Made by a program: the position numbers and the translations under genes
The notes under the pieces: generated by a model
The model's database searches: none
Told to the model about the DNA's origin: nothing
Seen by the model: only the letters and a program-made list of their open reading frames with translations
Shown here: one piece after another, positions 25,234-27,858 of the stretch
How positions within the stretch are numbered: position 1 is the stretch's first letter
Layout of the letters: the number at the start of each line of letters is the position of its first letter
From: a virus
Taxonomy: Duplodnaviria; Caudoviricetes
Reading direction: 5' to 3' (one strand)
DNA: 30,640 bases
IMG/VR virus record: IMGVR_UViG_3300020045_001088
Span: 1-30,640 of that record

Positions 25234-25268
25234 TTAACAGGAGTGAAGGGTTGGGGGTGTTATCTTTG
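25234..25268 (+). promoter_or_regulatory. Promoter TTAACA-N21-TATCTTTG
   Basis: Same spacing as the promoters at 25694, 27649 and 30322. Confidence 0.65.
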
Positions 25269-25270
25269 GG

Positions 25271-25616
25271 TAACGTTTTGCAGCTATGCCCAGTTGGGCA
25301 ATTGAAAGAACAAAAATTAAATAACAGATAAAAATTAATAAAATGGAAGAAACATCAAAAAACAACGAAACTGCCCAATTGGGTATAGGTGTTGTTAGCA
25401 GCAGTGCTTTACGGGTTATAAACTATGTCAAAAAGCATAATTGCAGAATAAGAATGAGGTGGTACTGTGGCATACAGATACACAGGGTTTGGAAAAACGA
25501 AAGAGAGTTGTCTTATCCAATGATTAATGAAGATACTTGGTGTGAAATTTCGCATCTATTTAAACAAGACGGTGATTATCAGCAAACGCACTTCTACGAT
25601 TTGCATTGCTGCTAAC
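25271..25616. mobile_element. Single-gene cassette with a split attC-like hairpin, flanked by TAAC
   Basis: TAAC at 25271-25274 and 25613-25616; 21 nt arms 25280-25300 / 25372-25392; GTTAGCAGCAGTGC 25394-25407 is the inverse of GCATTGCTGCTAAC 25603-25616 (13/14). Confidence 0.7.
25343..25615 (+). CDS. Cassette-borne hypothetical protein
   Basis: AT-rich; the N-terminal TAQLGIGVVSSSA and C-terminal HCC* are encoded by the element's inverted repeats. Confidence 0.65.
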   Translation: MEETSKNNETAQLGIGVVSSSALRVINYVKKHNCRIRMRWYCGIQIHRVWKNERELSYPMINEDTWCEISHLFKQDGDYQQTHFYDLHCC

Positions 25617-25692
25617 TAAAGGATACACGAAATAATACCTTTTGCAATGCTCCGCCAACACCTCGAAAAGATACCAAAGTCAACTTGCCCAT

Positions 25693-25738
25693 TTTAACAC
25701 CCCTTAACATTTACCAACAAACCAAGGGCTTATCTTTG
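25693..25738 (+). promoter_or_regulatory. Promoter with tandem TTAACA boxes
   Basis: TTTAACACCCCTTAACATTTAC is identical to 27648-27669; TATCTTTG at 25731. Confidence 0.75.
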
Positions 25739-25755
25739 GGTAAAATTACAACACC

Positions 25756-25980
25756 ATGAAACTATTTATCGAAGAAATACAAAAAGAACTATCGGCCTTT
25801 GTTCAAGAAATGGAGGCCACTAAGGAGCATGGCGGAGGAATTGAAATGGAGATTCACATAGGTCAAGATGTAGATTACATCTGCCGAGTAGGCAACTCCG
25901 TTGACACCGTGTCTGCAAGCGGAAAAACCATGCACGAGGCGTATTGGAAAGCGGTAGTTAAATACGAAAGTCAGCCATGA
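25756..25980 (+). CDS. Hypothetical protein
   Basis: First ORF after the promoter. Confidence 0.65.
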   Translation: MKLFIEEIQKELSAFVQEMEATKEHGGGIEMEIHIGQDVDYICRVGNSVDTVSASGKTMHEAYWKAVVKYESQP

Positions 25981-26153
25981 GCAGCGCAGCAAGAATGTTC
26001 TTAGAACAACGGGAACGGGAAACACAAGAAGAAATTTACAATCAACAATTTAATTCATATCAATCATGGCTATTACAGCAACAAACGAAGGAGGCGTCCA
26101 AACGCGAGAACAAGTACCGTCAGGCAATCACGTTGCCCGATGCGTTAAAATGA
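25977..26153 (+). CDS. Possible 58 aa ORF (not in the ORF track)
   Basis: ATGA-coupled, but overlaps the next gene by 88 nt. Confidence 0.35.
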   Translation: MSSAARMFLEQRERETQEEIYNQQFNSYQSWLLQQQTKEASKRENKYRQAITLPDALK

Positions 26154-26716
26154 TTCACATAGGAACGGTAAATACCGAATACCTGGGTGAAGTCAAAGTA
26201 CAAAACAAAATCCGTATCGGCTGGGAATTACCCAACGAAACGAGGGTATTCAATCCAGACAAAGGTGAGCAGCCGATGGTGATTGAAAACACCTACACCC
26301 TGTCAATGCACGAAAAGGCAAGCCTACGGGCAATGCTTCAAAATTGGCGCGGTAAAGCGTTCACCGATGAAGAAGCGAAAGGCTTTGACGTGACTAAGTT
26401 GCTCGGGGTTCCCTGTATGCTTAACGTCATCCACAAGCCAAGTAAGGACGGCCAAAAGGTTTACGCCAACATTTCGGGAGTTACACCATTGCCCAAGGGC
26501 TTTGTTTGCCCCGAACAAGTGAACCCTACTTTTGAATTGAATTACGATGAATTTGACAAGGAGAAGTTTGATTCTTTACCCAAGTTCATACAGGAGGAAA
26601 TGCAAGATAGTGTCGAGTATAAGAAGATGAATGCGGTTAGTGGCCTTAGTTCTTTTATGACGGAGGACACGCCAAACAACTCACAAGCTGACGAGGACGA
26701 CCAACTTCCCTTCTGA
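26066..26716 (+). CDS. Probable single-stranded DNA-binding / replication protein
   Basis: G.HVARC..MIHIGT, YTLSMHEKA.LR..L..WRG, LLGVPC.LNV, YANI; SSB-like acidic tail DEDDQLPF. Confidence 0.65.
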   Translation: MAITATNEGGVQTREQVPSGNHVARCVKMIHIGTVNTEYLGEVKVQNKIRIGWELPNETRVFNPDKGEQPMVIENTYTLSMHEKASLRAMLQNWRGKAFTDEEAKGFDVTKLLGVPCMLNVIHKPSKDGQKVYANISGVTPLPKGFVCPEQVNPTFELNYDEFDKEKFDSLPKFIQEEMQDSVEYKKMNAVSGLSSFMTEDTPNNSQADEDDQLPF

Positions 26717-27394: not shown

Positions 27395-27652
27395 ATGGCA
27401 ACAATGACTAAAGGCAATGTAATTGTCGAAAACATTAAAATAGGCGACATTCACTACGAATTTGAATTAGCCTATGGTTGTGAAAGCGAGGTTATTTCTT
27501 TGCCTGTAAGGAGTGATGACGGGTATTGGACATGGCAAAGTAAAAATCTTTTAAGTGGCAAGGTTATCAAGTACGGGGTTCGTGAGGGTATGGAGCATTA
27601 CGGCCCAAACCTTTATGACTACAAAGCATACCAAGTAAAGGGATGGATTTAA
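27395..27652 (+). CDS. Hypothetical protein
   Basis: ATG 27395 after an A-rich leader. Confidence 0.65.
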   Translation: MATMTKGNVIVENIKIGDIHYEFELAYGCESEVISLPVRSDDGYWTWQSKNLLSGKVIKYGVREGMEHYGPNLYDYKAYQVKGWI

Positions 27653-27693
27653 CACCCCTTAACATTTACGATTGTAAGCGCGGGGTATATTTG
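27648..27693 (+). promoter_or_regulatory. Promoter with tandem TTAACA boxes driving the tRNA/ncRNA region
   Basis: 22 nt repeat plus TATATTTG at 27686-27693. Confidence 0.75.
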
Positions 27694-27785: not shown

Positions 27786-27858
27786 GTCGAGATAGCTCAT
27801 TGGTGAGAGCGCGTCATTGTTAATGACAAGGTAGGTGGTTCGATTCCATCTCTCGGCA
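27786..27858 (+). tRNA. tRNA with GTT (Asn) anticodon and Thr-like body; CCA not encoded
   Basis: Acceptor GTCGAGA/TCTCGGC, D arm GCTC/GAGC, anticodon arm CGTCA-TTGTTAA-TGACA, T arm GGTGG-TTCGATT-CCATC, discriminator A. Confidence 0.88.

Follow-up and report, generated by a model that had tools for sequence, protein, structure and literature searches.

The 342-base unit at positions 25271–25616 of the window (the whole stretch of DNA analyzed, which is a complete virus record of 30.6 kb) is a mobile cassette belonging to a family of hairpin sites shared by Bacteroidota and their phages, likely inserted behind a promoter-like motif by a Xer-like tyrosine recombinase that came from the host or from a co-infecting phage. 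Its mobility and anatomy rest on the comparison of copies and related sites, and from these we infer the chemistry of recombination.

The record is linear, rated 100% complete by CheckV, and carries the terminase, portal, tape measure and primase-helicase genes of a tailed phage. The unit is placed after the primase-helicase, among small early genes, and has a GC content of 33–38% as compared with about 44–47% in the flanking genes. A tRNA gene (27786–27858, Rfam score 61.6 bits) also lies among the early genes, and a 6-base tandem repeat that opens the contig (positions 1–72) and translates into a Ser-Gly run is probably an assembly break. No tyrosine recombinase (PF00589) was found in the whole phage record, in agreement with the first-pass annotation, which had reported a cassette with neither integrase nor array; since the phage encodes no recombinase, the cassette is an orphan here. 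The absence of an array applies to the window phage only, where a whole-genome check found this unit to be the sole body of its kind, and does not extend to most relatives, which sit in arrays.

The unit is bounded by two TAAC cores located 342 bases apart (25271 and 25613), and all of its parts are described here on the + strand. The left core (25271–25274, an R'-like box) is the point where homology to the loci L353, L339 and L354 starts, the left flanks being only 20–45% identical. It is followed by an unpaired 5-nt spacer (25275–25279) standing opposite a single nucleotide at 25393, by the 5' arm of a 21-bp inner stem (25280–25300, with three G.T pairs and one G-G), by an A-rich loop of 71 nt (25301–25371) that contains the leader and the ATG (25343), and by the 3' arm of the same stem (25372–25392), which is translated as codons 11–17 of the ORF. 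The GTTA core (25394–25397, an R''-like box) marks the limit between an exchangeable head and the body, and identity to L339 and L354 begins there. The adjoining cassette-specific outer arm (25398–25407, with G at its position 7, 25404) pairs with the distal outer arm (25603–25612, with T at position 7, 25606), a pairing that covaries in the family. The cargo gene (25343–25615) encodes 90 aa of unknown family; its distal arm codes for HCC and the TAA of the right core (25613–25616) is its stop codon, exactly as had been read from the letters. Homology to the three other copies stops at this right core, and the sequence behind it (25617–25630) is not a hairpin head but a weakly attI-like remainder of the target.

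When the circle junction was rebuilt by coordinates, the 10-bp outer arm, the TAAC/GTTA core, the 5-versus-1 spacer and the 21-bp inner stem came together in one long hairpin, as the first-pass annotation had claimed, with four G.T pairs and one G-G as its non-Watson-Crick pairs. The DNA folding energy of this junction was −27.9 kcal/mol on the + strand and −19.2 kcal/mol on the − strand, which bears out the suggested strand-specific fold, while 200 base shuffles gave −9.3 ± 2.6 kcal/mol (lowest −17.5) and the split genomic form gave −17.3. A loose TAAC-to-GTTA pattern occurs in the window no more often than expected (5 against 6.7). Flavo-1 RNA (RF01705) and any other Rfam identity of the hairpin were rejected, none passing the gathering threshold either for the window or for the sites taken from 10 array loci.

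The same gene body was recovered in three other loci (L339, L353 and L354), in which the flanks differ on both sides and the edges fall at TAAC. Between L339 and L354, identity is 99% within the unit and 40% in the left flank, and the identity between the window and L353 ends exactly at the left TAAC. Moreover, a head of the window type (80–92% identity) precedes 14 distinct downstream sequences, so that near-identical heads are found on unrelated genes. The same ends around unrelated cargo and the same cassette at unrelated loci had both been named beforehand as support, and these other loci and other cargo overturn the refutation that had been set beside them, namely that the arms always accompany one gene at one locus. 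Compared across its copies, 25271–25616 is a real mobile cassette. An empty allele with a single TAAC was also looked for in sister phages and none was found, there being no close syntenic sister: the neighbouring gene at 26066–26716 retrieved 78 loci at 32–62% identity, none of them syntenic and none closer than 62% in this protein, the neighbour at 25756–25980 retrieved 0 loci, and the primase-helicase retrieved 1 (45%), not syntenic. The window flanks had no blastn match among the phage and genome loci collected at that point, and blastn against GenBank phages gave no match either.

Searches with a 16-base motif from the left end of the unit matched about 280 viral stretches and about 1,500 genome stretches (in each case the 123 listed were examined), and most of these matches repeated this anatomy with unrelated genes, frequently as tandem units. 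Among the matches listed, the 80 titled genome loci comprised 73 labelled Bacteroidota, 3 Ignavibacteria and 4 others, which agrees with the Bacteroidota hosts proposed at first; the accompanying idea of a system that mainly delivers single genes had to be given up, as arrays are the rule. The outer arm of each cassette, which can find its complement nowhere but across the gene or in a circle, was checked over 10 bases and had its partner just before a downstream TAAC in 114/194 phage heads (2–9 with permuted arms, ten permutations) and in 63/115 chromosomal heads (0–4, likewise ten permutations). This pairing across the gene, together with the anatomy and the homology edges at TAAC, upholds the attC-like split hairpin of the first-pass annotation. 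Across the family the outer arm covaries freely and reaches 11 bp (position 11, which was not filtered, is paired in 109/140 phage and 44/54 chromosomal sites, and position 12 in 38/140 and 13/54), a length that we take to resemble Xer half-sites. Its position 7 is T.G in 138/140 phage and 53/54 chromosomal sites and never A.C, though the filter permitted it. The spacer on the AAC arm is 4 nt longer than its counterpart in 102/140 phage and 45/54 chromosomal sites. No conserved extrahelical base was found in these sites, the bulge on the GTT arm being present in 16/140 and 7/54 without a fixed position and absent from the window. The strand-energy preference, seen in 140/140 phage and 51/54 chromosomal sites, is a partly circular statistic, because motifs taken from the window served as seeds for the site sample and G.T pairs raised the score in the head finder.

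Two layouts of these cassettes were distinguished. In chromosomal units the gene is antisense to the folding strand in 54/64 (9 sense, 1 unclear), which is the classical attC layout, and in viral units it is sense in 140/146 (3 antisense, at least one of them a mis-parse, and 3 unclear), the inversion noted for the ORF of the window cassette, whose ATG lies inside the loop of the site. Of 149 sense units examined, 77 have the start codon inside the head, with GTT read in frame in 57 of these 77, and 47 use the TAA within the end core as their stop codon. Since the T.G pair stays on the same strand whichever the layout, the orientation of the gene is reversed with respect to the complete site; in phage cassettes it is the gene, and not the arms, that is inverted. 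Inversion by flipping of the GTTA-to-TAAC body was considered and rejected, since it would turn T.G into A.C, which was never observed, and since no body matched another in reverse. No cargo common to viruses and chromosomes was found among 474 body contexts, and phage cassettes would thus far appear as a separate pool. Phage-type sense arrays were also seen in two Bacteroidota MAG contigs from genome bins (L139 and L144), possibly prophages or mis-binned phage contigs, and a DUF805 RNA motif (RF03081) lies within a chromosomal cassette array (L190:806–873).

Chromosomal arrays beside a tyrosine recombinase, another kind of support named in advance, were found as well. Thirteen distinct tyrosine recombinases lie near the chromosomal sites, 9/13 of them on the side of the array end and in the orientation of the cargo, and a close relative of the enzyme is present in 44/121 sampled Bacteroidales genomes. 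In a test that started from the enzyme, 20 loci were fetched, of which 13 had at least 1.5 kb downstream; 6/13 contained complete bodies in the expected orientation (downstream GC 0.31–0.40), 7/13 had no complete body under the strict filter, and in none of these Bacteroidales loci were bodies found on the other strand or upstream. Of the 20 loci L531–L550, the other 7 stop within 1.5 kb downstream, which suggests that arrays break assemblies and are undercounted. A shorter phage relative of the enzyme was found in 218 stretches, 80 of which were retained, with bodies upstream in 56/57 loci that had enough upstream DNA and downstream in 0/79 parsed; these phage arrays have a conserved non-hairpin end site about 50 nt ahead of the recombinase start codon. 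The proposal that the cassette is mobilised in trans by a host enzyme was therefore retained in part: an enzyme acting in trans is needed in the window phage, but it need not be the host's, because many phages encode the short relative right beside arrays.

Both enzyme types have Phage_integrase and SAM_4 domains and are 42–48 residues shorter than VchIntI4 (2A3V) in the insertion region. None of 5 genomes holding sites encodes an IntI above the TIGR02249 cut-off, and the linked enzymes also score below it. By these alignments and scores, the linked enzymes are Xer-like and devoid of the IntI insertion (I2). In three chromosomal array recombinases (L152, L178 and L195) the N-terminus is considerably extended, by as much as about 600 aa, with a faint HARP-like match; these extensions are absent from the 265-aa phage enzymes and are a candidate single-strand-binding module.

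At the insertion spot, the promoter-like octamer TAnnTTTG (25261–25268), which we take to be the −7 promoter element of Bacteroidota, lies 2 nt before the left core and likely drives the cargo. Taken by itself, the octamer is no more frequent in the window than expected (26 against 27.7), the 14-mer that contains it recurs at 25730–25743, and similar octamers are present at 25731 and 27686. Two copies of a 19-base upstream element with the TAnnTTTG octamer 16 nt later (25696–25743 and 27651–27693) are likely early phage promoters; the octamer at 25261 has the same downstream bases as these copies and lacks the upstream element. As no promoter octamer precedes the left core in any of the 44 other unlinked heads, the promoter context of the window cassette is not typical. 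Of these heads, 38/44 retain T at position 7 and probably belong to the interior of arrays; among the remaining 6, 3 coincide with the stop codon of a reading frame located upstream (background 64/1,359). Leftmost cassettes (L339:2171–2431, L001, L008 and L039) are often situated on the TAA stop of the upstream gene, which would make insertion harmless. The left flank of the unit is no cassette end, the position-7 T being absent. Scored with a matrix built from 16 chromosomal array ends, the right flank comes first among the 198 TAAC sites in the window (2.0 bits, a low score where leave-one-out scores of true ends range from −5.2 to 14.2), and with one built from 32 phage array ends it comes third of 198; it weakly resembles array-end (attI-like) sites.

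The copies also show an exchange of heads exactly at GTTA (7 pairs, 4 families). The window and L353 have heads that are 91% identical and bodies that are 81% identical, whereas L353 and L339 share bodies at 91% identity and have heads at 54%, with stems at about 40%. The head differs at GTTA in 4/14 body families (7/21 pairs) and 10 families retain it. For integrons, the available part of one report describes how the contact between extrahelical bases (EHBs) and I2 blocks the second strand exchange (PMC4792948). As the present sites have no conserved extrahelical bases and their enzymes no I2, two folded sites could presumably complete both exchanges, and the outcome would be a swap of exactly the TAAC-to-GTTA piece. 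A possible, if rather doubtful, alternative is that the head differences arose by homologous recombination or gene conversion among hairpins, or by rare recombination of the opposite strand at GTTA, after which the cassette re-inserted in the normal way. The common loop sequence (62% identity between the two head types) could seed the homologous route, yet identity drops right at the core (stems of 22–26 nt are 36–42% identical and 28/30 of the nucleotides that come next match), and the exchange of a whole head would require two breakpoints, at TAAC and GTTA, with only 4–5 common bases. Recombination of the attC top strand at low rates, more so without EHBs, is described in the part of PMC5027507 that was at hand and favours the opposite-strand route, but excision of this kind predicts a head taken from the downstream neighbour, which the four copies, a small sample, did not show.

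The 90-aa cargo had no PHROG, Pfam or NCBIfam match and no feature match in the ESM Atlas, and its structure neighbours were weak (best TM 0.59, low-confidence model). Seven homologues were found, and with a pN/pS of 0.07–0.16 in 4/6 pairs (a fifth pair has no synonymous differences) the cargo is under purifying selection. Homologues P0003–P0006 have no cassette end, thus the gene exists also in a decayed or free form. P0006 and P0004 lack the C-terminal arm peptide of the cassette and are a possible free donor or decayed cassette; for the arm-less P0006, no viral locus was found.

Taken together, direct insertion in trans is the best reading of the window copy. The + strand would fold as single-stranded DNA, and the enzyme would cut between AA and C of the TAAC core; the excised circle would rebuild a continuous stem (outer arm, core, 5/1 spacer, inner stem), which would recombine with a TAAC target resembling an array-end (attI-like) site. 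Recombination with such a target would leave the hairpin ahead of the gene, where it would supply the leader, the ATG and 17 N-terminal codons, and between two folded sites the second strand exchange may be finished, swapping heads. The main rival is block capture from another phage, in which the window copy would be a remnant of an array (the last cassette with its array-end site) acquired by homologous or illegitimate recombination, or left after deletion of the recombinase gene, with no site-specific insertion here. We regard this as unlikely: the right flank is like array-end sites, many phage arrays end in such attI-like sites with no recombinase behind, and a 14-mer direct repeat flanks the block 25274–25743, but the left flank is no cassette end, the identity with L353 halts exactly at the left TAAC, and the 14-mer belongs to the promoter-like motif, whose octamer core is found again at 27686, which explains the repeat without duplication.

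That a classical IntI placed an ordinary integron cassette (SALIN) in a secondary attG site is very improbable, even though the AAC/GTT core, a G.T-rich recombining strand and a single cassette near a promoter are all known from the available portions of the literature (10.1101/2022.09.11.507474; PMC5027507), as are phage-borne attC sites (PMC9892861): the 5/5 site-holding genomes have no IntI over the TIGR02249 cut-off, the linked enzymes are without the insertion, and the sites combine a 5/1 spacer and an 11-bp outer arm with the lack of a conserved EHB. The least probable reading, to which we give hardly any credence, takes the hairpin for an RNA leader or a REP/MITE-like repeat and the unit for no recombination substrate. 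It would suit the sense orientation around the start codon in phages and the G.T bias, which equally fits RNA (G.U), but the same polarity is antisense to genes in chromosomes (54/64), the outer arm has its partner at the distal end of each gene, and the linkage to a recombinase is tight.

Integron chemistry is thought to require an IntI-specific domain and extrahelical bases. The window cassette has the imperfect, AAC/GTT-bounded hairpin of the classical integron that is split on insertion, one of its strands folds better and carries G.T pairs as in integrons, and the arrays of the family likewise end in a non-hairpin attI-like site beside a tyrosine recombinase. In contrast, the two or three extrahelical bases that attC has on the arm opposite AAC are not conserved in the present sites, the I2-type insertion of IntI is absent from the linked enzymes, and the family stands apart by its 5 versus 1 spacer, its cassette-specific outer arm of 11 bp, its invariant T.G, a recombinase co-oriented with the cargo, and phage genes that are inverted and start inside the site. 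An attC site stands behind its gene, which is true of the chromosomal copies (54/64) but neither of the window cassette nor of 140/146 phage units. By its sequence features, the family appears integron-cassette-like in its working and not a member of the IntI/attC family. As described in the available parts of the respective reports, SALINs are lone cassettes without integrase beside a promoter-like motif, to which the window cassette is alike except that its site is no classical attC (10.1101/2022.09.11.507474), and phage CALINs are cassette sites carried by phages, as here (PMC9892861); unlike the present family, both use IntI-type attC in the classical orientation (10.1101/2022.09.11.507474; PMC9892861). 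The main text of PMC9892861 contains no mention of Bacteroid- or Flavobact-.

With IntegronFinder, almost no integrons were found in Bacteroidetes, according to the part of that report that was available (PMC9024848). Tentatively, and with slightly less than even confidence, we suggest a second integron-like system of Bacteroidota and their phages, in which an I2-less Xer-type enzyme would act on folded single-strand sites, both exchanges would be completed, and heads (site, leader and start codon) would be shuffled among bodies, while phages would keep a mirror-image pool and scatter single cassettes behind promoters. A family without I2 or extrahelical bases, whose enzyme occurs in 44/121 Bacteroidales genomes and whose sites are carried by hundreds of phages, would mean that gene shuffling in a major phylum and its viruses takes a parallel path overlooked by current tools. 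If true, this would make it possible to test how cassettes come by their sites and change them: with the T.G mark and the head exchange, experiments can address where the site and the orientation of a cassette come from, and whether a Xer enzyme lacking I2 acts on folded DNA. A hairpin head around the start codon would also explain the N-terminal peptide common to many small phage proteins.

The first-pass annotation had put the system forward as a candidate for an undescribed one. Our literature searches, which covered few subscription journals, returned no paper describing the anatomy of the site, the inverted form in phages or the exchange of heads, and 'undescribed' is apt for the first two of these. 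It is limited to them because the chromosomal side resembles the rAID-1 arrays of Bacteroidales, the closest described system, with the likeness judged by description from the available passages of the report (10.1101/471110). These passages present a XerD-like recombinase with low-GC genes behind it that run in the same direction and have repeated sequences between them, 'reminiscent of integrons', another motif immediately 3' of the recombinase, and, as criteria, a recombinase >44% identical to BF9343_RS08045 and cargo enriched in orphan immunity genes (10.1101/471110). By this description, the rAID-1 layout is matched by the chromosomal relatives only, the window itself being without a recombinase, and no site structure, crossover or phage form is described in the same passages (10.1101/471110). 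As compared with rAID-1 so described, the present family spans environmental Bacteroidota broadly and has a T.G-marked split hairpin, inverted phage cassettes, a phage enzyme downstream of the array, and the exchange of heads.
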